A stretch of 64,000 nt of DNA, from contig JAQUNI010000001.1 of the NCBI GenBank assembly GCA_028717685.1, forward strand, positions 54,306 to 118,305, read 5' to 3'. This DNA is from Patescibacteria group bacterium. Its GTDB lineage: Bacteria; Patescibacteriota; JAQUNI01. Shown here piece by piece: positions 365 through 63,480 of the stretch (its first letter is position 1; each line of letters starts with the position of its first letter). A program made the position numbers and the translations under genes. Under the pieces are notes generated by a model. The model worked only from the letters and a program-made list of their open reading frames with translations, had not been told where the DNA came from and ran no database searches.

Positions 365-436
<72 letters not shown>

Positions 437-445
437 AAAGACGAA

Positions 446-829
446 TTACGAAGTACGAATTATAGTTTTAGTAGTTTTAATGAGGCCATTGATCATTTTA
501 CTAAGTTCAATGGTTTGGGTAGCTACAGGGTCAAAATCTTTATTGCTCAAATAGTTTATATCTCTGGCAATTAACAACTGATTTTGAACCTCGGTTAAGG
601 ATCCTAAAGCGCGGCAATAAAACTGCATCTTCTCTTTATAAGAAGGTCTACTAAATCCTTCAGCAATATTAGAAGTGAAAGAAACGGCTGCTCTCCTTAA
701 TTGGCTAGTTAAACCAAAGATTTCTTCTCTGGGAAATTTTTGGGTGACTTTGTAGATCATCAAGACTAATTTGTGTCCTTCTTTCCAAACTCGCAAATCG
801 GTAAAAGATTTAATTTTATTTTGATCCAT
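446..829 (-). CDS. four-helix-bundle protein (23S rRNA intervening-sequence protein / Avd-like fold family)
   Basis: 127 aa. Shares the conserved core with the two pilus-locus paralogs (W-x-K, LT-Q-RRAAVS-SNIAEG). Lies 10 bp from tRNA-Gln. Confidence 0.6.
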   Translation of the reverse strand: MDQNKIKSFTDLRVWKEGHKLVLMIYKVTQKFPREEIFGLTSQLRRAAVSFTSNIAEGFSRPSYKEKMQFYCRALGSLTEVQNQLLIARDINYLSNKDFDPVATQTIELSKMINGLIKTTKTIIRTS

Positions 830-873
830 GAAAATTGTTTATCCGTGATTCGTAATTCGGAATTCGTGATTCG

Positions 874-2397
874 CTATTTCACAATCTCCCCTCCCAAAAC
901 CTCCAGTGCTTCTTTAGTTAAATTGTTATTCTGTTGCAATTCTACCTTTTCACATTGAATCTGCCATTTGCCACCTAAGATTTGGTCTAAAACCCCTTCC
1001 ACTGTTTTTTTATTGCGGGCTTGAGAAACCATATCCTTATGGAAATCCCGCGGGAAACCCAAAACTAAAGAGCCATCGCGAAAAGCGACTGGCTGGCAGA
1101 GTTTCAAGAAAGCGCACAAAGAATAATTTAAAGGCTCCACCGCCTTTAACACCTCATTCCATTTACCTACCACCTGTTCTAAATTCATTGTCGGCTTTTG
1201 ATATTCGGGTAAGGAAGGAAATGATGTTTTTTCTTCTTTTTCTTCCAGTTTCGGGCTTTGGATTTTTTCCCGCGCTTCCGCTACCTTACCCATTGCTTCA
1301 CTATATTCTATAATGGCTAACTCCAAAGACAATTGAGGAATTAAAGCCGCATCCAAACTATTCTTCGCGGCCATAAAAAGCCTCACTAAATAGGCTAAAC
1401 TTTTCAGAGAGAAATTTTGGGCGCGAGCAACTAATTCTTCTTTTTGGGCAGAAGAAAAAGAAAGCCCGGCGTGATCCAGCAAAGCGGGCTGAACCTTAGC
1501 CAACATCATTCTGCGGAGATAATCAACAAGCTCGTCCGTAAAATTAAATAAGTCTTGACCATTGGCGACAGTCTCATTTACTTTGCGAATAGCTTGCGCA
1601 CTGTCGCAAGAAGCCAGCATATTCACGAAATCTGATATTAAAGACCAATCGACCGTGCCTAAAAAATCAGCCACTTTGCGGAGCTTGAGCTCTTTTTTGG
1701 GCCAAGAGAGAATCTGACCTAAAACACCTTCGGCATCCCGCTCCCCGCCGTCCGCTTTGATGGCGATCAATCTCAAAATCTCGGGGTTTAAAACGCGCTT
1801 CTCCTCCCTTAAAATCCGCGTTAAGCGGTGTTCAATTTCAGCGACGGTCAATTTTTTAAAATCAAATCTCTGACAGCGCGAGAGAATCGTCTCGGGCACT
1901 TCGTGCACCTCTGTCGTCGCTAAAATGAAAAGAGTATGCGGAGGCGGCTCTTCCAAGGTTTTCAAAAGAGCGTTAAAGGCTTCCCGCGTCAACATATGCG
2001 CTTCATCAATAATATAAACTTTAAAACTATCTCTTTGGGGCGCGAAACGCACATTCTCACGGAGAGCGCGAATTTCATTGATGCCGCGGTTGGAGGCGGC
2101 GTCAATCTCAACCAAATCCAATGACCTGCCAGAGGTAATCTCCTGACAACTCGCGCAACGGTTGCAGGGTTCCACCTTTCCGAGCCTGCGTTCGCGCGCG
2201 CTTTTTTTGTTCTGGCAATTAATCGCCTTAGCGAGAATGCGCGCCACGGTGGTCTTGCCAATGCCGCGAGGACCCGCGAAAATATAAGCATGGGCAATCT
2301 TGCCCAAGCTTAACTCATTCTTTAAAGTTTGGATAATGGCAGTCTGTCCTTCCATTTCAGAAAATTTTTGAGGTCTGTATTTACGATATAAAGTCAT
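874..2397 (-). CDS. dnaX: DNA polymerase III subunit gamma/tau
   Basis: 507 aa. Walker A GPRGIGKTT, zinc-binding cysteine cluster CNRCASCQ, clamp-loader AAA+ layout. Confidence 0.9.
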   Translation of the reverse strand: MTLYRKYRPQKFSEMEGQTAIIQTLKNELSLGKIAHAYIFAGPRGIGKTTVARILAKAINCQNKKSARERRLGKVEPCNRCASCQEITSGRSLDLVEIDAASNRGINEIRALRENVRFAPQRDSFKVYIIDEAHMLTREAFNALLKTLEEPPPHTLFILATTEVHEVPETILSRCQRFDFKKLTVAEIEHRLTRILREEKRVLNPEILRLIAIKADGGERDAEGVLGQILSWPKKELKLRKVADFLGTVDWSLISDFVNMLASCDSAQAIRKVNETVANGQDLFNFTDELVDYLRRMMLAKVQPALLDHAGLSFSSAQKEELVARAQNFSLKSLAYLVRLFMAAKNSLDAALIPQLSLELAIIEYSEAMGKVAEAREKIQSPKLEEKEEKTSFPSLPEYQKPTMNLEQVVGKWNEVLKAVEPLNYSLCAFLKLCQPVAFRDGSLVLGFPRDFHKDMVSQARNKKTVEGVLDQILGGKWQIQCEKVELQQNNNLTKEALEVLGGEIVK

Positions 2398-2440
2398 AAA
2401 TTGGGAATGGGGAATTAAGAATTAGGAATCAGGAATAAGA

Positions 2441-11328: not shown

Positions 11329-11610
11329 ATGTTTGACTCTCTTAAAAATCTCAACCAATTAAGGCAACAAGCTAAAAAAATCAAAAAAGAATTAGGTAAA
11401 GAAATCTTGATCGGCACCGCGGAAGATGGCAAAATTCAAATCACGATGGACGGCAACCAAGAGGTGAAGGCTGTGCGCGTAGAACCGGATTTGCTTACTT
11501 CCGAAAACAAGGAAAAAATTGAAAAAGGCATCAAAGAAGCGATTACCCAATGCATTACCCAAATGCAAATGGCGATGGCAAGGAAGATGCAGAATGGAGG
11601 AATGTTTTAA
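11329..11610 (+). CDS. ybaB: nucleoid-associated protein YbaB/EbfC
   Basis: 93 aa with the typical YbaB pattern; sits upstream of recR, the classic arrangement. Confidence 0.85.
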   Translation: MFDSLKNLNQLRQQAKKIKKELGKEILIGTAEDGKIQITMDGNQEVKAVRVEPDLLTSENKEKIEKGIKEAITQCITQMQMAMARKMQNGGMF

Positions 11611-11746
11611 GTTAAAAGTTAAAAGTGCAAAGTGAAAAGTTGAATTTAAAGTTTAAAGTTTCTTTTGTAAAAGCAGCTGCTCCGCAATAATTTTGTACTT
11701 TAAACCGCAATTTTGAACTTTGAATTTTTAACTTTGAACTAATTTT

Positions 11747-12492: not shown

Positions 12493-12499
12493 ATTGGAT

Positions 12500-14037: not shown

Positions 14038-14145
14038 TGAAAAAAATTAAAAATGAAAAGTGAAAAATGTAAAATTAAATTGAAAACAATTTTTTCATTT
14101 TAGATTGTGATTTTTAATTTTTCATTTTATATTTTACGTTTTCTA

Positions 14146-15735: not shown

Positions 15736-15793
15736 AAAAAAAATGTAAAATTAAAAATGAAAAATGTAAAATAACATTTGAGATTTTACATTT

Positions 15794-16414: not shown

Positions 16415-18019
16415 ATGCACACAAAAAGCAAAATCACAGTAGTTTTATTTTTACTGATTTTGATTCTCGCCGGCGTCTTCCGTTTTTGGCAAATCAGGGA
16501 TCTTCCTGGCGGACTCTACTCGGATGAAGGCGCGAATGGCTTGGATGTTTTGGATATCTTATCCGGCAAGAACCGCGATGTCTTTTATGAGCGCAACTAT
16601 GGTCGGGAGGGATTATTCTTCTACCTGCTCGCTCTCTCGGTTAAAATTTTTGGCATTGGTGTCTGGCAAATGAAAATCGTCTCGGGGATTTTAGGAATCC
16701 TCACGATTATCGGCCTTTATCTCTTGACCAAAACACTTTTTAACCGCACGATCGCCCTTTTAGCCTCTCTATTTGCCGCAGTGTCTATTCCTTATACTTT
16801 CTTGAGCCGCGTGGCTTTCCGCGCCAATATGCTGCCTTTTGTCTCGGTTTTTCTTTTTTATTTCTGCGTGAAGACCCTCAAAGATAAAAAGGATAAATAC
16901 TTTTATTCTTTTTTAGCCGGCATCTTCTTAGCCTTAGGATTTTATACTTATATTTCTTTCCGCATTATCCCCTTCTGCATCATCGCTCTTATTATCCTAT
17001 TTGAAATTATTTGCCGCCGCACTGGCAACCCGAAAGGATTTATTGTCCCTCACCGAAAACAAATTTTCACTGCTCTTATTGCTTTTCTGATTGCCATCGC
17101 GCCTCTTGCTTTCTATTTCTACCAACACCCCTCTTCTTTTTTTGGCCGCGCCAATGATGTTTCTATTTTGAATCCCAATCTAGCGCATGGCCCTTTTTAT
17201 TATCTCCTCCGTAATGTTGGTCTCACCGCAATTATGTTTAATGTCTATGGCGATGCCAATTGGCGCCATAATCTTTCGGAAGCGCCATTTTTTGACCCTG
17301 TGACTGGCGTTCTTTTCTTAGTCGGCTTGATCATCGCGGCGACTATATTTTTAAAAACAGGTTTAAAAGTTTTAAAGCATAAAGACATCGCTTTGCGCGA
17401 AACCTTTGCCGGCTATCTTCTTATTTTTGGCTGGCTTTTCAGCCTCCTTGTTCCGATGATAGCAACAGAAGAAGCAATTCCGCATTTCTTGCGCAGTATT
17501 GGCATTATCCCTGTCGTGTTTATTTTTCCCGCTTTGGGTCTGCGCGCCCTTTTCTTACGCATCCGCTACCGACCAGTGATGCTCGGTTTCCTGCTTCTTC
17601 TTTTAGTTGTCTTTGTGGTTAATTATAATCTCTGGCTATATTTTCAAGTAGCTAAAAACTCTTACGGATATTATACCTCCTATTATGGCGATTTAACTTT
17701 GGTCAGTAACTATATCAATGAAATTAACACGGGTAATACTAAATCCTCTCTCACTACTAGCGCTAATACTTTTCTAGTGCTTGATGATAAGGCTGACCGC
17801 ACTGTCAGCTTCTTAACTGCGCCCGCGAATCCTTATACTTTAATACCAATCAACGCAGAGATAAAAACGACCTATCCCGAAAGCGCGAAAATTATCTTCC
17901 CCTCTTTAAGTTTTAATCGCTTGGCTTCCTTCCAGAATATTTTCCCGGAAGCGAGATTAGTCTACGAAGAATACAATCGGTTTGGGGAAAAGGCGTTTGA
18001 AGTATATACCCTGCAATAA
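16415..18019 (+). CDS. GT-C glycosyltransferase family 39 (ArnT/PMT-like)
   Basis: 534 aa polytopic protein with the first-loop acidic motif (YSDEGANGLD) typical of ArnT/PMT-type GT-C enzymes. Confidence 0.7.
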   Translation: MHTKSKITVVLFLLILILAGVFRFWQIRDLPGGLYSDEGANGLDVLDILSGKNRDVFYERNYGREGLFFYLLALSVKIFGIGVWQMKIVSGILGILTIIGLYLLTKTLFNRTIALLASLFAAVSIPYTFLSRVAFRANMLPFVSVFLFYFCVKTLKDKKDKYFYSFLAGIFLALGFYTYISFRIIPFCIIALIILFEIICRRTGNPKGFIVPHRKQIFTALIAFLIAIAPLAFYFYQHPSSFFGRANDVSILNPNLAHGPFYYLLRNVGLTAIMFNVYGDANWRHNLSEAPFFDPVTGVLFLVGLIIAATIFLKTGLKVLKHKDIALRETFAGYLLIFGWLFSLLVPMIATEEAIPHFLRSIGIIPVVFIFPALGLRALFLRIRYRPVMLGFLLLLLVVFVVNYNLWLYFQVAKNSYGYYTSYYGDLTLVSNYINEINTGNTKSSLTTSANTFLVLDDKADRTVSFLTAPANPYTLIPINAEIKTTYPESAKIIFPSLSFNRLASFQNIFPEARLVYEEYNRFGEKAFEVYTLQ

Positions 18020-18044
18020 TTTTTTTACTATTTATCAAAATTTA

Positions 18045-18181
18045 ATAATTTTCCCTGCGAAAAATTTTCAATTTTCAATTTCTAATTTTTATTAAATTTT
18101 TAATCTTAAAATTTTTAAACATTTAAAATTGATTTATTGAAAATTTAATAAAAATTGAAAATTAGAAATTAAAAATTACTT
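18045..18181. repeat. AT-rich MITE-like element, copy A (terminal inverted repeats aattttcaatttctaattt / aaattagaaattaaaaatt)
   Basis: Left TIR 18070..18088, right TIR about 18160..18178; element ends in aaaattactt directly abutting the ATG of the next gene. Highly similar to copy B. Confidence 0.55.
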
Positions 18182-19933
18182 ATGAAATGGCTCACTAAAT
18201 TTGCTCCTCCTCTTCTGATCACTATAATAGTTTTGGTTTCCTTTTTTTCGGTCCAAAAAGATTCCGCGATTATGGATGAGGTCGCCCATATCCCTGCTGG
18301 CTATTCCTACCTGAAATTTGGAGACTACCGCTTAAATCCCGAGCATCCCCCTTTAGCGAAAATGCTGTCCGCTCTTCCTCTCCTTTTCTTGCACCTCCAA
18401 TTCCCCTTAAACCATCCCACTTGGACAACCGACGTGAATGGTCAATGGGAAGCGGGATATCAGTTTTTATACCACCTTGGCAATGACGCGGATCAAATAC
18501 TCTTTTGGTCGCGCCTGCCGATTATCGCTCTTTTAATCTTGCTGGGGATCTATGTCTGGAAATGGGCAAAAGAGCTCCTGGGGGCAAAATGGGCGCTGGC
18601 GGTTCTGTTTTTGTATGCTTTCTCTCCCACGATTATTGCCCATAGCCACTATGTGACCACTGATTTAGCCGCAACATGTTTTATCTTTATCGCCTTTTAT
18701 TATTTTGTTCATTATTTAAAAAAACCGAGCCTTAAGAATACTCTTTTGGCTGGTCTTGCTCTGGGCTTAGCCGAGGTCGCTAAATTTTCGGCGGTTCTTC
18801 TTTTCCCGTGTTTTGTTCTCCTTGCCCTTATTCCCCTCCTTTTAAACAGGTCTCCCCAAACTTCTTGGCTCAAGCAAACAAAAAACCATATCGGCAAATT
18901 TATCCTCATTTGTTTGATCGCGCTCGGAGTAATCCTTATTGTCTATCAACCCGCGGTCTGGGCTTTCAATTTAGAAAAACAACAAGAATTAATCCGCGGT
19001 TCTATCGGACCGGAAAAAATTGAAAATATTGTGCTCGCTATAAGTAAAATCCCAGGAGCGCAAGGTTTTGCCCAATATATCTTGGGCGTTGTGATGGTCT
19101 TTGCCCGCGTGGGAGGCGGCAACACCAATTACTTCTTGGGTCAGGTTTCTAATCAAGGGTGGTGGTATTATTTCCCAACCTGTTTTTTTCTAAAAGAAAC
19201 AATTTCGGTCTTAATCTTAACAGGATTAGCTTTGCTTTTTGTGATTCGCAAATTTGTCATCAATCTCGTAAAAGACCGTCCGCGCAAATGGCTTCCTTGG
19301 TTTAGGGAATACGCGCTTTGTCATCTGGCGGAAATCTCAATGGTAGTTTTTATCATTGTTTATGGGGTAGTCAGCATGAGAGGCAAACTGAACTTAGGCG
19401 TCCGCCACATTATGGTCCTTTTCCCCTTTATCTATATTTTAATCATTAAAGAATTCAAACGGCGTATAGCAGAAACTGCCTATAAAAAACTTTTCACAGG
19501 AATATTGATTGTTCTCCTTGTTTGGGTTGGCGTGGAAGTCACGATAAATTATCCTTCGTACCTTGCTTATTATAACGAGCTTGGTGGCGGTCCGAAGAAT
19601 GGCTATAAATTGATCACAGATTCCAATCTGGACTGGGGGCAGGATTTAAGACGTATGGCGGAATGGGTGAACGCCAATCCTGAAATCTCAAAAATTAAAG
19701 TAGATTATTTTGGCGGCGGAGTGCCCTCTTATTATCTTGGCGATAAATATCAAGAATGGCATTCGCAAAATGGACCAACAACGGGTTGGATTGCTGTCAG
19801 CGCAAATTATTTTTCTGAAAGTATTTATCGCAAAGATTCCACCTTTGCCACCTCTTACTATTATCTAGAATTAAAAAAGCCCGAAAAAATCTTCGGGCAT
19901 TCCATATTTGTGTATTATATACCGGAGGAATAA
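18182..19933 (+). CDS. GT-C glycosyltransferase family 39 (ArnT/PMT-like), second tandem paralog
   Basis: 583 aa polytopic protein; loop motif MDEVAHIPAGYSY and PEHPPLAKML resemble the ArnT/PMT family. Confidence 0.7.
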   Translation: MKWLTKFAPPLLITIIVLVSFFSVQKDSAIMDEVAHIPAGYSYLKFGDYRLNPEHPPLAKMLSALPLLFLHLQFPLNHPTWTTDVNGQWEAGYQFLYHLGNDADQILFWSRLPIIALLILLGIYVWKWAKELLGAKWALAVLFLYAFSPTIIAHSHYVTTDLAATCFIFIAFYYFVHYLKKPSLKNTLLAGLALGLAEVAKFSAVLLFPCFVLLALIPLLLNRSPQTSWLKQTKNHIGKFILICLIALGVILIVYQPAVWAFNLEKQQELIRGSIGPEKIENIVLAISKIPGAQGFAQYILGVVMVFARVGGGNTNYFLGQVSNQGWWYYFPTCFFLKETISVLILTGLALLFVIRKFVINLVKDRPRKWLPWFREYALCHLAEISMVVFIIVYGVVSMRGKLNLGVRHIMVLFPFIYILIIKEFKRRIAETAYKKLFTGILIVLLVWVGVEVTINYPSYLAYYNELGGGPKNGYKLITDSNLDWGQDLRRMAEWVNANPEISKIKVDYFGGGVPSYYLGDKYQEWHSQNGPTTGWIAVSANYFSESIYRKDSTFATSYYYLELKKPEKIFGHSIFVYYIPEE

Positions 19934-20090
19934 ATTTCTAATTTTCAATTTCTAATTTCTATTAAATTTTTAATTTTAAAATTTTCAAACACCATTAGAA
20001 ATGAAAAATTTCTAGACGGGATAAACCTTTTAAAAATTAATTCATTAGAAATTTAATAAAAATTGAAAATTAGAAATTGAAAATTACTTA
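19934..20090. repeat. AT-rich MITE-like element, copy B
   Basis: Left TIR 19940..19958 and right TIR 20067..20085 are perfect reverse complements; internal sequence near-identical to copy A; right end overlaps the stop codon of the convergent gene. Confidence 0.55.
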
Positions 20091-21136
20091 TAATACACCA
20101 ATCCCTGCACCCTTAAATCAATATAGTATTTAATTTCTTTATTATTTTTCCCAATATCCTCTTTGAAAACTAAGGTTAAAGCTTCAAGTTGGTTTTGCAA
20201 GCTCTGTCTAGTGTCAAAAAATATTTGATAACCTTTGTCCGTTTTTATATACAAGTCGCGGGAATCAGAAATCGGCACAATGAATTCTTGGATTTTCAAA
20301 TCCGTCTTTAGAGATAACAAATCCCGCACTTGAAAAAGGAAACTTAAAAAAGAGGGGTCTAAAATCTGCTCGCGCGGTTCTACTTTTTTAAAAGACTGAT
20401 CATAAAGAACGGGTAATCCCTTTTCCCATACCGTTTCCTCGGGAATTTCCTCGCCGATTATTCCTTCCGCATCTAAAAAGTGATAAAGAATAGTGGGATT
20501 TTCGGGATAGGAGGTTGGAGTCAAGATGGCTTGTGACTCTTTATCTTTAACTTCCCCGATTTCCTCCCTACTCGTAGAATCACTGGCAAAAGCTTCAGGG
20601 GGTAAAAATAAATCCTGCGGCGCGCCATTTGCCCAAATCGCTTTCGGCTCCCTCTCGGTAATGATAATTTTTAAAACATCGGGGAATTCTTTTTTAATGT
20701 CTATTTTCTCAATCTGGGCAAAATGGGCATAGATTACGCTGCTTAAATGCTTTTTACCCGCAATAATCAAATTTTCTTTGGGAAAAATAAAGGCGCGTCC
20801 CTTTAAATTCTCGCGCGCCAAATTTTCCACATCTTCACCCTTGACATTAACATTGCCTACCACTACAATCTCCTTGATTTGCCAGAACGGAAAAAAGAAT
20901 AAAAAATAAACAAGCGAACCTAACGCAAGCAAAAAAAGGAAAAAGGCAATTTTCCGCTGCAAATGTCCCGAAGCCTCGCGGACGCGAAAACGAGGAGTCG
21001 CGAGATAAATCCTCGGGCTCGCTAAGGTCCGCTTTTTCCTAAAAAACCCGCGTTTCCACTCCACTTTCCTTTTGCGGGATTTTTGTTTATACGGGTTTAA
21101 GTATAATTTTTTGCGGCTGGGTTTATGAGAAAACAC
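20084..21136 (-). CDS. FtsQ/DivIB-like cell division protein (POTRA domain)
   Basis: 350 aa; basic N-terminus, one TM helix, then POTRA-like IKEIVVVGNVNVKGEDVENL. The ORF starts with GTG; the true start may be further in. Confidence 0.5.
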   Translation of the reverse strand: MFSHKPSRKKLYLNPYKQKSRKRKVEWKRGFFRKKRTLASPRIYLATPRFRVREASGHLQRKIAFFLFLLALGSLVYFLFFFPFWQIKEIVVVGNVNVKGEDVENLARENLKGRAFIFPKENLIIAGKKHLSSVIYAHFAQIEKIDIKKEFPDVLKIIITEREPKAIWANGAPQDLFLPPEAFASDSTSREEIGEVKDKESQAILTPTSYPENPTILYHFLDAEGIIGEEIPEETVWEKGLPVLYDQSFKKVEPREQILDPSFLSFLFQVRDLLSLKTDLKIQEFIVPISDSRDLYIKTDKGYQIFFDTRQSLQNQLEALTLVFKEDIGKNNKEIKYYIDLRVQGLVYYK

Positions 21137-22469: not shown

Positions 22470-22499
22470 AAGCTACGGTTTTTTTATTCTACTAGACCC

Positions 22500-26947: not shown

Positions 26948-27766
26948 CTAACGGGGATTTTTAAACTTTGCATTATTTACCAGTTCCACCAGATTCATAA
27001 GGAGCATCATCACGGTCATTGGTCCGACGCCGCCCGGCACAGGCGCCAGAAAAGAAGCTTTTTTCTTCACGCTCGCCGCTTCCACATCCCCTTGGATTTT
27101 TCCCGCCCTCCAGCTCGTACCGGCATCAATTACGACGGCTCCTTTCTTGATCATCGTCCTGCGAATTAAATTGGGTTTACCCACACCCGAAATAATGATA
27201 TCAGCTTTTTTAACTTGAGCGGCTAGAGCTTTTGTATTTTGATCGTAAACCTTTACGCTTGCGCCTAGTTTTTGCATTAAACGCGCCGTTGGCTCGCCCA
27301 CTAATTTCCCCGCTCCCACTACCGCTACTTTCCGACCCTTCACTCCAATCTTATATTCCGCAAGAAGCGCGGCAATTCCTAAAGCCACAGGCGAGACGAC
27401 AGCGCGATTTTTAAAACCCTCTACGTCCATCTTCTTGGGTATACATTTCAAGACTTGATCTCTATCAATACCTTGAGGCAGGGGCAATTGTACCACTACG
27501 CCGTGAGGTTTTTTTTCTTTAATCGCTAAACGCAATATTTGGCAAATCTTTGGAGCGGGAGAAGAGGGAGGCAAAGTGACTAAGGAAAAGCTGACCCCCA
27601 AGGAATGGCAAATTTCCTTTTTCTTGCGCACAAAAATTCGGGAGGCTCGATCCTGTCCGACCATCAAAACTAAAAGGCGAGGCTTTATAGATAGGCCCTT
27701 TATCTCCTTCTGAAGATAATGAAAAAAATTTCGGGCTAGTTTTTTACCATCTAAAATCTGGAACAT
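26948..27766 (-). CDS. folD: bifunctional methylenetetrahydrofolate dehydrogenase/cyclohydrolase
   Basis: 272 aa, NAD(P) fold VVGAGKLVGEPTA and PVPGGVGPMTV motif. Confidence 0.9.
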   Translation of the reverse strand: MFQILDGKKLARNFFHYLQKEIKGLSIKPRLLVLMVGQDRASRIFVRKKKEICHSLGVSFSLVTLPPSSPAPKICQILRLAIKEKKPHGVVVQLPLPQGIDRDQVLKCIPKKMDVEGFKNRAVVSPVALGIAALLAEYKIGVKGRKVAVVGAGKLVGEPTARLMQKLGASVKVYDQNTKALAAQVKKADIIISGVGKPNLIRRTMIKKGAVVIDAGTSWRAGKIQGDVEAASVKKKASFLAPVPGGVGPMTVMMLLMNLVELVNNAKFKNPR

Positions 27767-27897
27767 AATATTGGTAATCAGTAATTAGTAATTAGTAATT
27801 GGTAATCGGGAGTCCTATAAATTACAAAATTTTTGAAAAGGAGTGAGCAAGAAAATTAGAGACAAATACTTAATTCCTGCTTCCTGATTTGTTCTTC

Positions 27898-31410: not shown

Positions 31411-31518
31411 AAAAAAGCGTAAAGTGAAAAGTGTAAAGCGTAAAGTGTAAAAAATAATAACCCAGTATTTTAAGTTGCACGCTGTTCATTTTATGCTTTA
31501 CGCTTTAAGTTTTAAGCT

Positions 31519-32559
31519 TTATTTATACTGCGTGTCCACCAACACCTCGCGCAAGAGGTCTAAATTTTCTAAGACCATGCCCGCGCCCCGAACAACACAA
31601 GTCAAGGGATCATTGGCGATCTGGACGGGCATCTGCGTCTCGCGTGCGACAAGACGGTCAAGACCGCGCAGGAGCGCGCCTCCGCCCGCCAAAATAATAC
31701 CCCGATCCATAATATCCGCGACAAGTTCAGGAGGGGTTTCCTCAATCGTTCCTTTAATATTAGAAACTAGATTTCTGATGGAACGCGATAAGGCTTCGCG
31801 CACCTGACTATCATTAATAATCACCTCCTTTGGCAGACCCGTGACGAGGTCCCGACCGCGCAACTTTGCTTCCAAGGGTTTCTTCAAAGGCCAAGCCGAG
31901 CCAATGGCGATTTTAATTTCTTCGGCTTTCCTTTCGCCGATTAATAAATTAAAGTGGTCGCGGGAATATTGAATAACATTCTCGTTTAATTCATCTCCCG
32001 CAATCCGCAACGATCGCGCCACCACGCCCCCGCCCAGAGAAATTACCGCCATCTCGGTTGTGCCGCCGCCGATATCCACAATCATACTTCCCGAAGCATC
32101 TTGCACGGGAAGGCGGGAACCGATGGCCGCGGCCATCGGTTCTTCAATCAAGAAAGCTTGCCTCGCGCCAGCCGTGCGCGTGGCATCCTCCACCGCTCGC
32201 CGCTCCACTTCGGTGCAGCCCGAAGGAATGCCAATCACTACCCTAGGTCGCGGAATAAGAGTGAACATTCCTTGGTGCACCTTCTGAATAAAATATTTTA
32301 ACATCTGCTCGGTCACTTCAAAATCAGAAATCACCCCGTCCACAAGTGGACGAGTGGCTACAATATGCATCGGCGTTCTTCCCACCATCTTTTTCGCTTC
32401 ATTGCCAATTGCCAAAACCTGACCCGTCTTCGTATTCATAGCCACGACCGAAGGCTCATTGATGACGATGCCTTTCCCACGCACATACACTAAGGTATTC
32501 GCTGTCCCTAAATCAATGCCGATGTCGCGGGAAAAAGCGCCTAAAAAACGATTAAACAT
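31519..32559 (-). CDS. mreB: rod shape-determining protein MreB (actin-like)
   Basis: 346 aa, IGIDLGTANTLVYV phosphate-1 motif and DIGGGTTE. Confidence 0.92.
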   Translation of the reverse strand: MFNRFLGAFSRDIGIDLGTANTLVYVRGKGIVINEPSVVAMNTKTGQVLAIGNEAKKMVGRTPMHIVATRPLVDGVISDFEVTEQMLKYFIQKVHQGMFTLIPRPRVVIGIPSGCTEVERRAVEDATRTAGARQAFLIEEPMAAAIGSRLPVQDASGSMIVDIGGGTTEMAVISLGGGVVARSLRIAGDELNENVIQYSRDHFNLLIGERKAEEIKIAIGSAWPLKKPLEAKLRGRDLVTGLPKEVIINDSQVREALSRSIRNLVSNIKGTIEETPPELVADIMDRGIILAGGGALLRGLDRLVARETQMPVQIANDPLTCVVRGAGMVLENLDLLREVLVDTQYK

Positions 32560-32624
32560 AATTTGGAATTAGGAATAGAGAATAATGAATAAGGAATAAG
32601 GAATTCTGAAAGTTACGCAATTCC

Positions 32625-32675
32625 TAAAAAAGGAGTAAGCAGAAATCTAAGGCAAACGCTTAACTCCTGCTTCCT
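32625..32675 (-). terminator. intrinsic terminator after proS
   Basis: On the minus strand: GGAGTTAAGC...GCTTACTCC stem (one bulge) followed by T6. A related sequence occurs after mrdA at 27833..27885. Confidence 0.5.
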
Positions 32676-32699
32676 AATTCCTGATTCCTGATTCCCAAC

Positions 32700-34187
32700 C
32701 TAGTACGCTTGGGCGAAGAGCCAGCGATATTTCGCGTCTTTGCCGCAGTAAATACATTTACCTCTCTCTTCCTTTACGTCAAGCTCCAAACATCGCGCAG
32801 TCGCACGAGTTTCTTCTTTAATCTTATCCTCGCATTCGCTCTTCTCACACCAAAAGGCGCGCAGAAAACCCCGCTCCTTCTTCATTATATCTTGAAACTC
32901 CGGATAAGAATCAATAAGATGGGTGTGCTCTTGCGTGAATTTTTGGTGCCGCTCGAAAATCTCTTTTTGCATTATCTCCAGAGCCTTGCGAACCATAGAC
33001 GGCAATTCCGCAAGTTTTATTTTCTCTTTAACAAAATTATCGCGCCTGACTAAAGTCGCCGCTCCCGCTTTCATTTCCCGCTCACCAATTTCCACGCGCA
33101 GAGGCACCCCTTTCAATTCCCACTTATTAAATTTAAAACCGGCAGTTTCTCCTTCTCTTAAATCCACTTCCACGCGGAAATCTTGGAGCGACTCTTTCAC
33201 CTTTTCCGCAAAACCCAATACCTTGTCCTGACTTTCTGTTTTGAATATTGGAATAATGATGACCTGTAGGGGCGCGATTTGCGGAGGGAGAACCAAACCA
33301 TTATCATCGCCGCCCGCCATCACAAGACCGCCGATGCTGCGCGTGGAAAGACCCCAGCTGTTCTGCCAAGGATAAAGATCGCGCCGGTCTTTGTTTTGCA
33401 CGGTCCAATGAAAAGCGCGCGAGAAGTTTTGACCCAAATCGTGCGAAGTGCCACCCTGCAGAGCCCTGCCATCCGGCATCAAAATTTCAAAACTAAAAGT
33501 TTTTGCGGCGCCGGCAAATTTTTCTCTCTCGCTCTTCACGCCCGCGATGCCATAAAGAGATAAAAGCTCATTGTAGACTTTTTTGTATGTTTGAAGCGCC
33601 CACGTTACTGTCTCCAGACTCTCTTTCTGGGTCGCGTGCGCGCAGTGCCCTTCCTGCCACAAAAATTCCGAAGTCCTTAAAAATAAATAGGTTCTTTTCT
33701 CCCAGCGCACTACATTATTCCACTGATTAATCATAATCGGCAAGTCGCGCCAAGACTTCACCCATTTTTTGTACATTTCATACATCACAGTTTCCGAGGT
33801 GGGACGAATCACAAGTTTCTCTTTCAGTTTCTCGCCGCCTGCTTCCGTGACAACAGCCATCTCCGGAGCAAATCCCGCCACATGCTCTTTCTCTTTATTT
33901 AAAAAACTTTCCGGAATAAAAAGGGGAAAATAAGCATTTTGGACGCCATGGGTTTTAATTAAAGGGTCAAGAAAGGCTTGGATTTTCTCCCACAAAGCGT
34001 AACCATAAGGCCTAATAACCATACAGCCCTTCACAGGCGCGTAATCCGCGAGTTCCGCTTTCAAAATAACATCTTGATACCACTTTCTTAGATCTTGGCT
34101 CTTTTTGGTAATTTGTTTAACCCTCCCGCTGTTCGCCTCAGATAAACTGTTTGAGGATTTCGCTTGTTCGGTTTTATTTTTAATCAT
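32700..34187 (-). CDS. proS: proline--tRNA ligase (archaeal/eukaryotic type)
   Basis: 495 aa, class II core and a C-terminal zinc-binding domain ending CIYCGKDAKYRWLFAQAY. Confidence 0.9.
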   Translation of the reverse strand: MIKNKTEQAKSSNSLSEANSGRVKQITKKSQDLRKWYQDVILKAELADYAPVKGCMVIRPYGYALWEKIQAFLDPLIKTHGVQNAYFPLFIPESFLNKEKEHVAGFAPEMAVVTEAGGEKLKEKLVIRPTSETVMYEMYKKWVKSWRDLPIMINQWNNVVRWEKRTYLFLRTSEFLWQEGHCAHATQKESLETVTWALQTYKKVYNELLSLYGIAGVKSEREKFAGAAKTFSFEILMPDGRALQGGTSHDLGQNFSRAFHWTVQNKDRRDLYPWQNSWGLSTRSIGGLVMAGGDDNGLVLPPQIAPLQVIIIPIFKTESQDKVLGFAEKVKESLQDFRVEVDLREGETAGFKFNKWELKGVPLRVEIGEREMKAGAATLVRRDNFVKEKIKLAELPSMVRKALEIMQKEIFERHQKFTQEHTHLIDSYPEFQDIMKKERGFLRAFWCEKSECEDKIKEETRATARCLELDVKEERGKCIYCGKDAKYRWLFAQAY

Positions 34188-35356: not shown

Positions 35357-35480
35357 GGAAAATTTCTAATTGACCTAATGTCTAATTTCTAAATAATTCC
35401 CAATGTCTAATAACCAATGACTAAAGAAAAATTTTAGACATTAGACATCAGTTATTAGTTAGGTCAATATAAAAATTAGA

Positions 35481-44697: not shown

Positions 44698-44825
44698 AGA
44701 GATAATATCTAATTTCTAATATTAAATACAATAGCTAATAATTAAAGCTTTTGTAACTTATAGCCTATAACTTGTGACTCAAGCCTTGTATTACAAGTTT
44801 CAAGTTATAAATTATAAAAATTATT

Positions 44826-46994: not shown

Positions 46995-47102
46995 AAATTC
47001 GGAATTAGGAATAGGGAATTATGAATCATGAATCAGAAATTAGGAAGCGAGGAAAAAAGCTGTTCATCTTTATTCCTGATTCCTGATTCCCACTTCCTTT
47101 AG

Positions 47103-47561
47103 TTATACTCTTCTTGCTTTGCGCGGCCGACAACCATTGTGAGGAATAGGCGTAACATCCTGAATAGATAGAATAGTTAAACCGTTGGCCGCAAGTGCTC
47201 TCACTGCCGATTCACGCCCCGACCCAATCCCGTTTAAGAAAACGTCCACCTTTTCTAAACCATAAATCTGTGATTTTTCGCAAGCGCTTTGAGCTACTTT
47301 AGAAGCGGCATAAGGCGTGGATTTCTTTGCTCCCCTGAATCCCAAGCGTCCAGCAGAACCTTGGGCAATCACATTACCATGCAAATCGGTCAAACTAATA
47401 ATAGTATTATTATAAGTAGCATAAATGTGTGCTTGACCTTGCGGCACGTATTTCCGAATTTTCTTGCGTTTTCCCTCGGGTTTCGCCTCGCCCGTTTTGG
47501 CTTTCTGCTCTGTATCGTAATCCGCATTAGATTCAATTGTTTTAATCTTCTTTTTGCCCAT
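47103..47561 (-). CDS. rpsK: 30S ribosomal protein S11 with basic N-terminal extension
   Basis: 152 aa; canonical uS11 core (HIYATYNNTIISLTD) preceded by about 25 extra Lys-rich residues. Confidence 0.9.
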   Translation of the reverse strand: MGKKKIKTIESNADYDTEQKAKTGEAKPEGKRKKIRKYVPQGQAHIYATYNNTIISLTDLHGNVIAQGSAGRLGFRGAKKSTPYAASKVAQSACEKSQIYGLEKVDVFLNGIGSGRESAVRALAANGLTILSIQDVTPIPHNGCRPRKARRV

Positions 47562-47640
47562 AATGTTGGAATTAGGAATTGTGAATCAGGAATTAGGAAA
47601 GAAGAAAAAAGGCTATTCATCTTTATTCCTTATTCAGATT

Positions 47641-48030
47641 TTATGTTTTTTCTGACGCCGACCTGCGACCGCTGCCTGCTGTTTTACGGACATTGCCCCG
47701 CACTGTCCGAGAGTTGGTGCGGGTACGTTGACCGCGGGCAGGAAGATTCTTCGCGTGCCGCGAGCCCCTATAACTTCCAATTTCTTTAAGACGTTTAATA
47801 TTGGTGGCGACTATCCTTCTTAAATCCCCTTCCACCTTATATTTTTTTTCAATAATATCCCGGAGCCTCCCTTCTTCTTCACTCGTCAGGAGAGACACAT
47901 GTTTATCGACATCCACCCGCGCCTCCACTAAAATTTTTCTAGCCAAAGATTGCCCTATGCCATAAATATAGGTTAAACCAATCTCTATTCTCTTATTGGG
48001 AGGTAAAATAACCCCTGCGATGCGAGCCAT
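47641..48030 (-). CDS. rpsM: 30S ribosomal protein S13
   Basis: 129 aa, [26 protein letters not shown]. Confidence 0.92.
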
Positions 48031-48132
48031 AAAATTGGAATTGTGAATTATGAATTATGAATTATGAAATTTGACAGCACATTCTTAATTTTAGATTTTC
48101 GCGATTCGTAATTCGTAATTCTAGATTCGGTG

Positions 48133-59061: not shown

Positions 59062-59067
59062 TAGGAT

Positions 59068-59084
59068 TAGTTGGTAGTTTGTAG
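59068..59084. repeat. left inverted repeat flanking four-helix-bundle gene 1
   Basis: tagttggtagtttgtag is the perfect reverse complement of 59468..59484. Confidence 0.7.
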
Positions 59085-59103
59085 TGAGTAGTTAGTAGTA
59101 AAT

Positions 59104-59463
59104 ATGAAAATTGAATCGTACGAAAATTTAATTGTGTGGCAAAAGTCAATGGATCTGGTGATTGCTGTTTATGCATTGACAGAAAAATTTCCAAAAGAAG
59201 AACTATACGGTTTAACTTCACAAATGCGCCGCGCAACTGTTTCAGTTCCTTCCAATATTGCGGAAGGTAGTAGGCGTGGTTCTCGAAAAAATTTTAGAAA
59301 TTTTTTACTCAATGCGTATGGTTCCAGTGCAGAGCTTGGGACTCAGATCAAAATCGCGAAACGGCTTTCATACGGAAAAACCAAAAATTATGAGCAAGCG
59401 GATGCACTGCTTGATGAAGTAATGCGCATGTTAGACAAATTGACGTATGGGCTCAAAGAATAA
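59104..59463 (+). CDS. four-helix-bundle protein (23S rRNA IVS-protein / Avd-like fold family), copy 1
   Basis: 119 aa (MKIESYENLIVWQKSMDLV...LTSQMRRATVSVPSNIAEG); about 92 percent identical to the copy at 61765..62124. Confidence 0.7.
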   Translation: MKIESYENLIVWQKSMDLVIAVYALTEKFPKEELYGLTSQMRRATVSVPSNIAEGSRRGSRKNFRNFLLNAYGSSAELGTQIKIAKRLSYGKTKNYEQADALLDEVMRMLDKLTYGLKE

Positions 59464-60886
59464 AAGTCTACAAACTACCAACTACAAACTACAAACTATC
59501 TTCCTAGGCAAAGAACGGGACTATTTTATTGAGAATTTAAGCATGCTGGTCGCCGCTGGCATGCCGATTTTGGGCGTTCTCGACTCCATTGCCAAAGAAC
59601 TGCGCTCGCGCCGCATGAAAAAAATTCTTGCTCTTATTCGGGAATATATTGAATCTGGCTCGCCAATTTGGAAAGCGCTTCAAACAACTAACCTGTTTGC
59701 CGACCACACTATCTCGCTTATCCGCCTTGGCGAAGAATCGGGAAAGCTTACGGAGAACTTAAAAGTGGTCGCGAATGAACAAGAAAAAAATCGGGTGTTC
59801 CACTCCAAGCTTCGTTCCGCCATAATGTATCCTGTATTCGTACTCTCACTCACGGTCATTATCGGTGTGGGCATTGCGTGGTTTATTTTGCCCAAGCTGG
59901 CGCTGGTGTTTGCCCAGCTTAAAATAACCTTGCCCCTTATCACAAAAATTTTGATCGGATCGGGAACATTTCTTGGCGAATATGGCCAATACGTCGTGCC
60001 CGCGGCAGTTATAGCAATATCAGTTATTTTTTTCTTTATTTTCTCATTTCCAAAAACAAAATTTATCGGGCAATTTATTTTATTTTCTTTGCCCGGCGTT
60101 AAACAACTTATTAAGGAAGTGGAGCTGGCGCGGCTCGGTTATCTTTTAGGCACGCTTCTTGACGCTGGACTGCCGGTAACCCAAGCGCTCAACTCGCTCG
60201 CAAGCGCTACCGAGATTGCGCCATACAAAAAACTCTACAAACACCTGCGCGACTCGGTAGAAGACGGCAATCCGTTCCGGAAAAGCTTTATTTCCTTTAA
60301 GCGCACTAATCATCTTATTCCCGAACCTATTCAGCAACTCATCGTCGCTGGTGAACAGTCAGGCACTCTTTCAGCAACTCTTCTTAAAATCGGAGAGACT
60401 TATGAAGCTAAAGCGGACACGACGACAAAAAATTTGACCGTGATTCTGGAGCCGATATTACTCGTCATCGTGTGGCTCGGCGTTGTAGCCGTGGCGTTAG
60501 CAGTGATTTTGCCAATCTACAGCCTTATCGGCGGATTTAACGCCAACCAGCCCGCAGCGGCACAGCCTCCTCCTGCCGAAGAACAGGTAATCAGTCCGCC
60601 GCCAAGTGTGGAAACAACAGCTCCAGATACAGAAACCGTGGAAGTAATACCCCCTCCGGATACAGAAATCATAGAGAAAAAACCAACAACGCTCCGCGTT
60701 CTTCCCACTAGCGTAGGGTATCTTAACGTGCGCGAGAAACCATCATTAACAAGTAAAATCGTCACGCGCGTTAAGCCGGGTGAAACATTTGAATACACTG
60801 AAAAAAACGAGAGCTGGTATAAAATTATTTTGCCGGATGGCAATTCCGGATGGGTGTTTGAAAAATATGTTGAAGAAAATGAATAA
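59447..60886 (+). CDS. pilC: type IV pilus platform protein PilC (GspF family) with C-terminal SH3b-like domain
   Basis: 479 aa: two GspF repeats and three TM segments, then a Pro/Thr/Glu-rich linker and an SH3b-like domain (YLNVREKPSLTSKIVTRVKPGETFEY...WYKI...GWV). ATG overlaps the 4HB stop. Confidence 0.85.
   Translation: MGSKNKSLQTTNYKLQTIFLGKERDYFIENLSMLVAAGMPILGVLDSIAKELRSRRMKKILALIREYIESGSPIWKALQTTNLFADHTISLIRLGEESGKLTENLKVVANEQEKNRVFHSKLRSAIMYPVFVLSLTVIIGVGIAWFILPKLALVFAQLKITLPLITKILIGSGTFLGEYGQYVVPAAVIAISVIFFFIFSFPKTKFIGQFILFSLPGVKQLIKEVELARLGYLLGTLLDAGLPVTQALNSLASATEIAPYKKLYKHLRDSVEDGNPFRKSFISFKRTNHLIPEPIQQLIVAGEQSGTLSATLLKIGETYEAKADTTTKNLTVILEPILLVIVWLGVVAVALAVILPIYSLIGGFNANQPAAAQPPPAEEQVISPPPSVETTAPDTETVEVIPPPDTEIIEKKPTTLRVLPTSVGYLNVREKPSLTSKIVTRVKPGETFEYTEKNESWYKIILPDGNSGWVFEKYVEENE
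59468..59484. repeat. right inverted repeat flanking four-helix-bundle gene 1 (also encodes the N-terminus of PilC)
   Basis: ctacaaactaccaacta; read in the pilC frame it encodes LQTTNYKLQT. Confidence 0.7.
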
Positions 60887-61038
60887 ACAAAACTAACAAA
60901 TGACACATAACATCTGACACATGACATTTGACACATATGAAACAAAAAAAATTATAGGAAAATAAAAGGGCATCGTCAGATGTTAGGTATCAGATGTTCC
61001 AAAAGGGTTTACCCAGCACCACTTTTTAGATTATAAAC

Positions 61039-61731
61039 ATGTATTACGTCTATACCTTAATTAGTAAGTTAAAAAATAAGACAGAAATATATATTGGATC
61101 AACAAATGATCTGAGAAGAAGACTAAGAGATCATAATAATGGTAAAGAAAGATCTACAAAACGTTATAGGACGTGGAATCTGATTTACTACGAAGCATAT
61201 ATAACAGAGAGTCTAGCAAGATTAAGAGAAAAACGATTGAAACATCACGGAAATGCGATGAAAGAATTAAAAAAAAGAATCGGATTATCCGAATGGAAAA
61301 GTGGTGCTGGGTTTACCTTGCTGGAAGTTCTTCTCTCTATCGCGGCGATCGCGATTATCGCCGTAATTTCTATTCCCATTTATCAGTCGTTTCAGGTGCG
61401 AAACGATCTTGATATCGCGACCATGGAAATTGCCCAAACTTTGCGGCGCGCGCAAGTACTTTCCCAAGCGGTTGATGGCGACACAAGCTGGGGCGTTTCT
61501 CTCGCAAGCGGAAATATCACGCTTTTTAAGGGCGTAAGTTACGCCACCCGCGATACCAATTTTGATGAAGTGTTTGATGTATCAACAAATATCACTCCAT
61601 CGGGACCTTCCGAAATCGTGTTTGTAAAATTTACAGGCTTACCACAGACCACGGGGACAATAATGCTATCCTCCAATATGAATGAAACGAGAAATATAGT
61701 AATTAACCAGAAGGGAATGGTTAATTATTAG
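61039..61731 (+). CDS. GIY-YIG nuclease domain fused in frame to a type IV prepilin
   Basis: 230 aa. Residues 1-90 are a complete GIY-YIG domain (YYVYTL...IYIGSTNDLRRRLRDHN...YYE...E). Residues 74-91 look like a prepilin leader (MKELKKRIGLSEWKSGAG) followed by the cleavage/methylation motif G/FTLLEV and a hydrophobic helix. Confidence 0.7.
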   Translation: MYYVYTLISKLKNKTEIYIGSTNDLRRRLRDHNNGKERSTKRYRTWNLIYYEAYITESLARLREKRLKHHGNAMKELKKRIGLSEWKSGAGFTLLEVLLSIAAIAIIAVISIPIYQSFQVRNDLDIATMEIAQTLRRAQVLSQAVDGDTSWGVSLASGNITLFKGVSYATRDTNFDEVFDVSTNITPSGPSEIVFVKFTGLPQTTGTIMLSSNMNETRNIVINQKGMVNY

Positions 61732-61736
61732 TTGGT

Positions 61737-61752
61737 AGTTTGTAGTGGGTAG
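61737..61752. repeat. left inverted repeat flanking four-helix-bundle gene 2
   Basis: agtttgtagtgggtag is the perfect reverse complement of 62129..62144. Confidence 0.7.
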
Positions 61753-61764
61753 TTGGTAGTAAAT

Positions 61765-62124
61765 ATGAAAATTGAATCATACGAAAATTTAATTGTGTGG
61801 CAAAAGTCAATGGATTTAGTGATTGCTGTTTATGCATTGACAGGAAAATTTCCAAAAGCAGAACTATACGGTTTAACTTCACAAATGCGCCGCGCGGCTG
61901 TTTCAATTCCTTCCAATATCGCGGAGGGGAGCAGGCGCGGTTCTCGGAAGGATTTTAGAAATTTTTTACTCAATGCGTATGGTTCTGGTGCAGAGCTTGA
62001 AACTCAAGTTAAAATTGCGAAACGACTTTCATACGGAAAAACCAAAGATTATGAGCAGGCGGACGCGCTGCTCGATGAAGTAATGCGCATGTTAAACAAA
62101 TTGACGTATGGGCTCAAAGAATAA
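61765..62124 (+). CDS. four-helix-bundle protein (23S rRNA IVS-protein / Avd-like fold family), copy 2
   Basis: 119 aa from the ATG at 61765 (the ORF track starts at an upstream TTG). Ten substitutions relative to copy 1. Confidence 0.7.
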   Translation: MKIESYENLIVWQKSMDLVIAVYALTGKFPKAELYGLTSQMRRAAVSIPSNIAEGSRRGSRKDFRNFLLNAYGSGAELETQVKIAKRLSYGKTKDYEQADALLDEVMRMLNKLTYGLKE

Positions 62125-62746: not shown

Positions 62747-62751
62747 TTTAG

Positions 62752-62823
62752 GGATTAGTTTGTAGTGAGTAGTTGGTAGGTTGTAGTTTTCTACTCACTA
62801 CTCACTACAAACTACAAACTAAC
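62752..62823. repeat. inverted-repeat hairpin of the leader-coding motif with no gene in the loop
   Basis: agtttgtagtgagtagttggtag...ctactcactactcactacaaactacaaact: the same arms that flank the 4HB genes, here adjacent, just upstream of the pilin ATG at 62824. Confidence 0.6.
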
Positions 62824-63348: not shown

Positions 63349-63480
63349 TCATAATGCGGCAAATGCCGCAACGACTGACACTTGATACCTAGCACCTGAC
63401 AACTGACCACTAACATCTAACATTTTGTTAGGTGTCAGATGCCAAATGTCAGGTGTTAGGTGCTAGGTGTCAAGTGTTAA

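Follow-up and report, generated by a model that had tools for sequence, protein, structure and literature searches.

The 64-kb window analyzed here (64,000 nucleotides of contig JAQUNI010000001.1 from a Patescibacteria group bacterium, a member of the Candidate Phyla Radiation [CPR]) is a core chromosomal region carrying genes for DnaX, DnaB, RecR, aminoacyl-tRNA synthetases, MreBC, ribosomal proteins, RpoA, and pili. Judged by homologues, the organism belongs to the Parcubacteria type of CPR. Two adjacent genes within it encode GT-C glycosyltransferases of the PMT_2/PMT type, and the second is bordered on each side by a copy of the same AT-rich palindrome, element A in front of its start codon and element B at its stop codon, where a convergent gene also ends (Table 1). 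This report concerns the origin of A and B and their relation to elements that encode proteins of the Pfam family PF05635. A preliminary description of this DNA had proposed that the PMT gene was inserted or duplicated as a cassette together with its flanking repeats, or else that the repeats work as paired terminator/promoter units.

Structure of elements A and B

Element A, of about 122 bp, ends 4 nt 5' of the ATG at 18182. Element B, of about 160 bp, starts at the PMT stop codon (19931-19933), and its right end extends over the convergent gene's final codons and stop codon (20084-20086); the spacers that contain the two elements have 11-15% G+C. A repeat finder aligned A and B in two blocks, a left one of 60 nt with 92% identity (18062-18121 versus 19932-19991) and a right one of 62 nt with 90% identity (18122-18183 versus 20030-20091), between which B carries some 38-39 nt beyond A (19990-20028). 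Each element is an imperfect palindrome from end to end, its two 56-57-nt arms being 75-79% complementary, and their RNA folds are more stable than those of dinucleotide shuffles (z = -4.1 for A and -5.3 for B).

The preliminary description was right that two repeated elements exist near the places it gave and that they lie in direct orientation, the direct alignment giving 90-92% identity in both arms and the inverted one 77-82%. The size of 140-150 bp assigned to both copies suits neither, and the inverted repeats, described as 19 bp long, are real but were much understated. In the window, 20-nt words from the elements were found 6 times and 24-nt words 3 times, compared with 0.13 and 0.00 times in shuffles, so that the likeness of A to B exceeds what AT richness would produce by chance; all of these occurrences fall within A or B save one match with three mismatches at 37264.

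The A/B family in other CPR genomes

Members of the family follow the pattern (AATTTYY)3-4-TATTAAAT...ATTTAATA-(RRAAATT)3-4. A scan of GTDB genomes with a 20-base degenerate pattern returned at least 120 loci, many of them chance matches in AT-rich non-CPR genomes. The same 20-nt pattern served as a control, and among the matches listed the median best match was 74 bits over 76 nt at CPR loci versus 38 bits over 41 nt at non-CPR loci. At the CPR loci the match runs the full 110-160 nt with 73-83% identity. The CPR lineages with full-length matches include, again among the matches listed, Saccharibacteria, Parcubacteria/Paceibacterota, Staskawiczbacteria, and Kuenenbacteria, and other CPR genomes hold at least 2-5 loci each. 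An exact 27-mer was found at ten loci in JGI metagenomes, none of them syntenic with the window. Viral contigs contained 36 loci with the same degenerate pattern, which are probably chance matches in AT-rich sequence.

A family profile was built from an alignment of 25 members (A, B, and 23 CPR copies), and its search of the collected loci recovered at least 60 near-full-length copies. In most of these, no more than about 20 nt separate either end from the neighboring ORF (open reading frame), the element usually being the whole spacer. The coincidence of element ends with gene boundaries, correctly noticed at the PMT gene, is thus a general habit of the family. In one parcubacterial locus (L022), two AT-rich family copies (3203-3354 and 5449-5607) each lie between the same pair of small G+C hairpins, CCACTGCTCCGCAGTGG ... 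CCAGTGCGAAGCACTGG, forming a composite element.

Relation to elements that encode PF05635 proteins

Three ORFs of the window (Table 1) match PF05635, named "23S rRNA intervening sequence protein," with E values of 1e-37 to 1e-40, and the arms around them pair as outer stems of 17-40 pairs in minimum free energy (MFE) folds. Arms of the TAGTTTG/CAAACTA type found around two of them also enclose, in a Staskawiczbacteria locus (L094), an ORF 76% identical to that at 61753-62124. Arms of the A/B type likewise enclose PF05635 ORFs of about 125 amino acids, in loci L041, L140, L089, L141, L094, L107, and L098 (iterated hidden Markov model search, confirmed with Pfam). An independent test was provided by the homologue P0223 at the dprA-topA locus in ten samples, where the same arms fill gaps of 34 and 58 nt. 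In total, at least eight loci place a PF05635 ORF above the Pfam cut-off between A/B-type arms, and across these genomes it is the only ORF ever seen in that position; Pfam matches adjoining the elements were likewise limited to PF05635.

The full-length element measures about 470-510 bp, and identity between the arms of A or B and those of the ORF-bearing elements is 80-93%. When ORF-less copies are aligned with full elements, the alignment falls into two blocks and the interior of the ORF is gone; for example, positions 1-66 and 67-129 of L074 match positions 13-76 and 442-504 of L089. ORF-less members keep AATGAATCAATTTTCAAAC, which encodes MNQFSN, the first six codons of the ORF, and this start is joined directly to GTTTAA or GTTTAG, the ORF's end; in A the start codon has decayed. 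Since the ORF-less copies correspond to the two ends of the full element, A and B are deletion derivatives. The extra 38 nt of B found no convincing match among the ORF-bearing elements (score of at most 15).

The flanked PMT gene and the turnover of its spacers

The order GT4, GT2, hypothetical protein, PMT_2, PMT, FtsQ-like protein, SerRS, LysRS is conserved in three relatives (L006, L009, and L010), and the PMT orthologue is also syntenic in L008. In L008, whose PMT protein is 88% identical, the gaps before and after the gene measure 199 and 235 nt and elements are present. In the more distant relatives the gaps are 37 and 2 nt (L010, 71% protein identity), 74 and 0 nt (L006, 69%), and 100 and 97 nt (L009, 64%), and none of these three has A/B-type elements around the PMT orthologue. 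The one exception to the conserved order is the absence of the first PMT_2 gene from L009 (GCA_040961635.1), where 3555-5874 corresponds to window positions 15794-19933 and the single PMT gene is the orthologue of the flanked one. A comparison of genomes with one and two PMT genes, proposed in the preliminary description, therefore identifies the first gene (16415-18019), not the flanked one, as variable.

Because the PMT gene is syntenic in relatives with short gaps, it was in place before the elements came; as judged by gene order, it is ancestral at its position and not part of a mobile unit. The two PMT genes had been taken for paralogues, and a recent duplication was considered and rejected, the two proteins having no BLASTP similarity (E = 1.6). 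The Logan contigs that contain the PMT gene extend for only some 1.8 kb and stop within the elements, as repeats would cause them to do.

These observations bear directly on the cassette proposal, according to which the PMT gene would have been inserted or duplicated together with its repeats, in the style of integron attC sites or as a composite unit. Similar repeats in direct orientation exactly at both ends of a gene do invite such a reading, and attC sites resemble our elements in being imperfect palindromes that sit at gene ends, fill the space between ORFs, and are alike between neighbors. Yet the gene occupies the same place in relatives without repeats, is unlike the neighboring PMT gene, and is flanked by elements of different ages. 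Neither GTTRRRY nor RYYYAAC core sites are present (A and B contain no GTT at all), the window encodes no integrase, and the genes concerned are housekeeping genes on both strands that are syntenic without elements. Moreover, the GT2 gene at 14146-15735 also lies between two elements of one type and is likewise syntenic in relatives. We therefore regard the cassette proposal as refuted.

The spacers themselves have changed more quickly than the genes. An orthologous copy of A is present in L008 (88%) and L131 (95%). The B site holds an AAAATNN-type heptamer hairpin in L008, ATTTTAA-type heptamers in L131, an AACTTTT array in L132 (77%), and an ordinary G+C stem-loop between A and T runs in L009, and it is empty (0-2 nt) in L006 and L010; L132 has no upstream element. 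Since A is common to close relatives while the B site is of a different type in each, sequence comparison indicates that A is older than B. B may have arisen by local copying or conversion of an A-like copy, the two elements being 1.75 kb apart and 90-92% identical. Such copying may have left a trace in ACTTAT, the right flank common to A and B: at B this flank is coding sequence of the convergent gene, and the A copy of L008 lacks it. In L132, a block of about 47 nt made of AACTTTT-type heptamers and located 3' of the PMT orthologue (1897-2036) has undergone tandem triplication, a higher-order amplification.

Such turnover could also be pictured without mobility, as hairpins born in place by heptamer slippage that act as bidirectional terminators or insulators and are homogenized between neighbors. 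The distribution over gaps agrees with this view: among the near-full-length copies listed, 44 lie in co-directional, 7 in convergent, and 1 in divergent gaps (7:1, p = 0.03), and tracts of 7-nt periodicity in the window and the CPR loci occupy 4 of 27 divergent gaps compared with 100 of 259 others (p = 0.019). So does the ordinary stem-loop of L009, which sits in the orthologous convergent gap, and so does an effect of proximity among window elements: those separated by less than 3 kb resemble each other more than those farther apart (permutation p < 0.0002, or 0.002 when the 59-64 kb cluster is left out), with A and B as the top pair. Against this view, one and the same sequence of about 120 nt is found again in Saccharibacteria, Paceibacteria, Staskawiczbacteria, Kuenenbacteria, and others, with its mismatches conserved and with ORF remnants. 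Consensus scans found neither a sigma-70-like promoter nor an intrinsic terminator (a short G+C-rich stem followed by a U run) in A or B, the elements in co-directional gaps leave no space for a separate promoter, and 0-2 nt suffice at the B site of L006 and L010. An origin in place is, in our estimation, quite unlikely.

Interpretation as ORF-less miniatures of a selfish element

With a probability of roughly 0.72, we conclude that A and B are ORF-less miniatures of a palindromic, selfish family of CPR elements whose full form encodes a PF05635 four-helix-bundle protein, and that they are present in pre-existing spacers beside an ancestral PMT gene, their stem being tolerated or processed. 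As far as alignment and gene order can establish it, A and B belong to this family, are related to the ORF-bearing elements, and entered, or were replaced in, spacers that already existed. The full element consists of inverted arms (AATTTYY)n...(RRAAATT)n around an ORF of about 125 amino acids, in the architecture of a 23S rRNA intervening sequence (IVS), and the miniature form is its two ends joined. In the proposed model, a copy in a spacer would be tolerated because its transcribed arms form a long, imperfect A-U stem by pairing with each other, which might be cut or trimmed by RNase III like the stems of IVSs or might alternatively act as an inert spacer that separates the PMT message from its neighbors.

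Several observations weigh against this interpretation. The window has no ORF-bearing element with AATTTYY arms, and a profile search found only the two members of the A/B sequence type in its 64 kb. Neither a transposase nor an integrase was found among its approximately 60 ORFs, which leaves distribution as the argument for mobility, and the window has no RNase III gene. Comparison of B with the empty sites of L006 and L010, a check suggested in the preliminary description, revealed no target-site duplication (TAA-B-CTTATAAT versus TAA-CTATTTATAAT), although a duplication of 1-2 nt of A or T is possible.

The elements had also been called similar to MITEs (miniature transposable elements with inverted repeats), and with respect to form this is apt. 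In common with MITEs and with the Correia/NEMIS, ERIC/IRU, RUP, and Rickettsia palindromic elements, they are small (100-160 bp), non-coding, mostly palindromic, intergenic, and dispersed, they are present or absent at orthologous sites in relatives, and they occur in long and short size classes of which the short one stems from internal deletion of a larger element; short-read assemblies break at them. A classical MITE would depend on a transposase acting in trans from another place in the genome, with the PF05635 ORF as a mere passenger. This is difficult to reconcile with the exclusive presence of PF05635 between the arms in 8 or more loci and with the retention of its start and stop in ORF-less copies, and the parent element has no transposase. 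The missing target-site duplication, the heptamer-periodic arms, and the usual replacement of the whole spacer are further differences. Membership among classical MITEs therefore seems to us improbable.

Pairing, binding, and possible function

The arms of A/B-family elements show a regular imperfection. In the mirror register, AATTTCT lies opposite GAAAATT, or AATTTTC opposite AGAAATT, and each mirrored pair of heptamers contains one C.A and one T.G mismatch (CT opposite GA, TC opposite AG), and elements in which both types are mixed obey this rule in every single pair as well. Such a conserved imperfection speaks for shared ancestry and for a constraint on sequence rather than on pairing, or may instead reflect selection against perfect palindromes.

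For the idea that the arms work as an RNA stem, the following results are unfavorable. Variable arm positions exhibit anti-covariation, with 85.4% of cells paired compared with 87.4 +/- 0.4% in shuffles, a value below all 500 shuffles; at these positions C-G accounts for 1-3 of 25 and C.A for 10-13. The stems are almost pure A-U with one mismatch every 7 nt, and 14 hairpins had no excess of G.U pairs on the sense strand (47 versus 42 antisense, p = 0.67). Given that the RNAalifold consensus is weak (-3.7 kcal/mol) and that the mirror structure has fewer compensatory changes than any shuffle, we make no claim of structure conservation. Rfam 15 covariance models gave no match at E <= 1 between 17800 and 20400 and, over the whole window, a single tRNA.

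The closest known parallel to the full element is the IVS of 23S rRNA genes, in which complementary borders form a stem that is excised by RNase III, the loop sometimes carries an S23p (PF05635) ORF, and mobility is suspected (PMC4990558). The rRNA genes of CPR bacteria contain 23S_rRNA_IVP ORFs together with many short ORF-less insertions (PMC11270868), and IVS elements have been viewed as selfish DNA that spreads horizontally (PMC4990558; PMC11270868). The elements of the window share with the IVSs of 23S and 16S rRNA genes, such as those of Coxiella, Leptospira, and CPR bacteria, a terminal complementary stem around a PF05635 ORF of about 120 amino acids and the existence of short ORF-less versions. 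Unlike IVSs, they lie in spacers between protein-coding genes, and their arms are degenerate heptamer arrays with, in the A/B family, a conserved C.A and T.G mismatch in each unit; excision by RNase III without ligation is a feature of IVSs, whereas the elements described here are known from sequence. Processing of the paired arms in RNA is possible by this analogy, at somewhat less than even odds.

Heptamer arrays as protein-binding sites, possibly for the PF05635 protein itself, are a more doubtful proposition. In its strongest form, the heptamers would be the working part, read for example by a pentamer-forming PF05635 protein, and the hairpin would be secondary. The anti-covariation fits this proposal, the arm sequences being kept without becoming complementary, as do the heptamer type peculiar to each PF05635 subfamily and the flanking of cyanobacterial PF05635 genes by heptamer arrays of which some are direct rather than inverted (see below). 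Against it stand the inverted arrangement that is the rule in CPR, the lack of a cognate ORF for A and B in the window, and the solved structures related to PF05635 proteins, which are annotated only as "uncharacterized." We regard this stronger form as unlikely and prefer the interpretation as ORF-less miniatures of a selfish element. That A and B are tolerated and do nothing else is a further possibility that we would back only tentatively.

PF05635 genes and heptamer arrays in cyanobacterial plasmids

A tblastn search of plasmids with a PF05635 protein of the window returned 28 records, almost all of them cyanobacterial, and six loci were inspected. Inverted heptamer arrays surround the PF05635 gene in two of the six, with AGGTGAC/GTCACCT in Anabaena sp. 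90 (L189) and TAGGGAG/CCCTACT in Nostoc edaphicum (L191). Pseudanabaena (L192) has direct heptamer arrays on both sides, Nostoc PCC 7120 (L190) non-complementary heptamer arrays, Picosynechococcus (L193) inverted 8-9-mers, and Calothrix (L194) no arrays. In stretches of 25 and 32 kb around two plasmid loci there are 4 and 3 period-7 tracts, of which two in each set flank the PF05635 gene. This small sample of six loci suggests that the association of PF05635 genes with heptamers is general. The direct and non-complementary arrays of L192 and L190 suggest that the array rather than the hairpin is the essential part, and they count as a further point against the RNA stem.

In three of these plasmids (L189, L192, and L193), the genes for the PF05635 "four helix bundle protein" lie within CRISPR-Cas operons, twice between cas6 and cas4 and once between cas10 and cmr3. 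The repeat arrays that flank these genes consist of heptamers in L189 and L192 and of 8-9-mers in L193. At another locus (L196), the array 5' of the PF05635 gene is 280 nt long.

Relation to known repeats and significance

Tandem heptanucleotide repeats (short tandemly repeated repetitive [STRR] sequences) were reportedly described in cyanobacteria by Mazel et al. in 1990. In the TIGR arrays of TIGR-Tas systems, which occur in CPR, the repeated unit is about 36 nt, not 7. The study of the TAACTGA repeats of Beggiatoaceae, Cyanobacteria, and Bacteroidetes (PMC4679880) draws no link from them to PF05635 or to hairpins. Both STRR and TAACTGA repeats are described as direct tandem copies of a single exact heptamer, in many cases immediately 5' of start codons. 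They resemble the elements of the window in being intergenic arrays of 7-nt units without known function; here, in contrast, the units are degenerate and are set as inverted arms. Our literature search, whose coverage was incomplete and which leaves novelty unproven, found no report that links PF05635 genes to heptamer repeats or describes these CPR palindromes. Within the same incomplete coverage, no report of such elements in spacers between protein-coding genes, of heptamer arms, or of ORF-less relics was found.

These findings remove a false lead, as no mobile glycosyltransferase cassette exists at this locus, and give an identity to a conspicuous part of CPR non-coding DNA. They also offer an explanation for the breaks of short-read assemblies at gene ends in CPR organisms. 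The ORF-less palindromes are tied to PF05635, a very abundant family with solved structures and no known function (3,591 clusters in the subfamily), and by virtue of this tie the heptamer arrays become a concrete candidate ligand. The association in cyanobacteria suggests an origin for heptanucleotide repeats that have served for decades as fingerprinting markers without explanation. More speculatively, heptamer-armed PF05635 elements might be a large, undescribed selfish class that has colonized, besides rRNA genes, the intergenic spacers of CPR genomes, where a large share of the non-coding DNA would be thousands of their ORF-less relics. Their cyanobacterial counterparts would then account for the STRR-type repeats, and the PF05635 protein would recognize the arrays and drive their spread or maintenance; we think this broad proposal less likely than not.

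Other heptamer elements and palindromes of the window

Many other spacers of the window fold as one long hairpin whose arms consist of degenerate 7-nt units, with a type of its own in each spacer. About 20 spacers are made of such units, and about 17 ORF-less heptamer elements of the window have sequence types other than that of A and B (Table 1). Tracts with a period of 7 number 28 (1,222 nt), whereas other lags from 4 to 12 yielded 0-2 tracts and local shuffles none.

Table 1. Elements A and B, the genes next to them, and other heptamer elements of the window
Feature	Position	Strand	Remarks
Upstream PMT_2 gene	16415..18019	+	534 aa; Pfam; missing from relative L009
Element A, ORF-less heptamer-armed palindrome	18056..18183	.	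Fills the spacer between the two PMT genes; profile E=1.7e-18
Element A, arms	left 18063-18118; right 18122-18177
Flanked gene, GT-C glycosyltransferase PMT_2/PMT	18182..19933	+	583 aa; Pfam; synteny in L006, L008, L009, L010
Element B, second ORF-less member	19927..20091	.	Between two convergent stop codons; profile E=5.5e-19
Element B, arms	left 19933-19989; right 20029-20085		Additional central segment 19990-20028, which has a small hairpin of its own
Downstream convergent gene	20084..21136	-	Weak FtsQ-type POTRA match; orthologues in L006, L008, L009, L010
PF05635 element, full type	425..880	-	ORF 446-829; inverted CGAATTA-type arms; Pfam E=3.4e-37; 17 pairs span the ORF (MFE)
PF05635 element, full type	59062..59506	+	ORF 59104-59463; TAGTTTG/CAAACTA arms; between T2SSE and T2SSF; Pfam E=8e-39; 40 pairs span the ORF
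PF05635 element, full type	61721..62165	+	ORF 61753-62124; DNA 91% identical to the 59062..59506 element; same arm type
Single heptamer array, GGAATNN	2398..2440	.	No partner arm in the gap
ORF-less heptamer hairpin, AAAGTTA	11600..11746	.
ORF-less heptamer hairpin, AAAATGN	14038..14145	.	One side of the GT2 gene
Heptamer element, AAAATGN	15736..15793	.	Opposite side of the GT2 gene; 86% with the 14038..14145 element over 42 nt
Heptamer tract, GTAATTA	27766..27897	.	Weak partner arm
ORF-less heptamer hairpin, AAAGYGT	31411..31524	.
ORF-less heptamer hairpin, GGAATNA/TNATTCC	32560..32700	.
ORF-less heptamer hairpin, TAATGTC/TAGACAT	35357..35480	.	Weak match to the A/B-family profile (E~0.002)
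Period-7 hairpin	44698..44825	.	Between the genes for ribosomal proteins L13 and L17
ORF-less heptamer hairpin, GGAATTA	46995..47100	.
Related copy of the 46995-47100 element	47560..47640	.	84% over 68 nt (47568-47635)
ORF-less heptamer hairpin, TGAATTA/CGTAATT	48025..48130	.
ORF-less heptamer hairpin, TGACACA	60887..61038	.
ORF-less hairpin, TAGTTTG/CAAACTA arms	62750..62860	.	Type as in the two neighboring ORF-bearing elements
ORF-less heptamer hairpin, TGACACC/GGTGTCA	63370..63485	.	Gap MFE -74.5 kcal/mol
ORF-less heptamer element, TAGTTTG/CAAACTA	63920..63995	.

In most heptamer types, one strand includes a stop codon (TAA in AATTTCT, TGA in GAAAATT, TAG in AGAAATT), and because 7 equals 1 modulo 3, three or more units place stops in all three frames beside genes, which AT richness might bring about as a side effect. 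The type IV pilus cluster at 57313-63995 (T2SSE, T2SSF, and pilins) is interrupted by the two 91%-identical PF05635 elements and by several ORF-less TAGTTTG hairpins. Within this cluster, the gene at 61039-61731 encodes a fusion of a GIY-YIG domain with a prepilin N-methylation motif.

A second class of intergenic palindromes is rich in G+C, with runs resembling CCCCTCC/GGAGGGG, and occurs at 5847-5965, 22470-22639, and 26041-26210 and within 40246-40746; Rfam gave no match for it. Two of its copies, one 5' of the CysRS gene and one between the GreA and LysRS genes, are 85-86% identical and lie in opposite orientations relative to transcription.

Repetitive extragenic palindromic (REP) sequences and the mosaic elements built from them (BIMEs) are G+C-rich palindromes of 20-40 nt with a conserved head that are associated with a RAYT transposase; A and B differ from them in length, composition, and sequence, and no RAYT-like gene was seen. 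A short palindrome, ACCCCGTTAGAGAA...TTCTCTAACGGGGT, recurs in many spacers of the window (12470-12499, 34212-34245, 36057-36090, and 48724-48779, and inside 3747-4035 and 16208-16414), and it appears to form a REP-like family separate from the heptamer elements.

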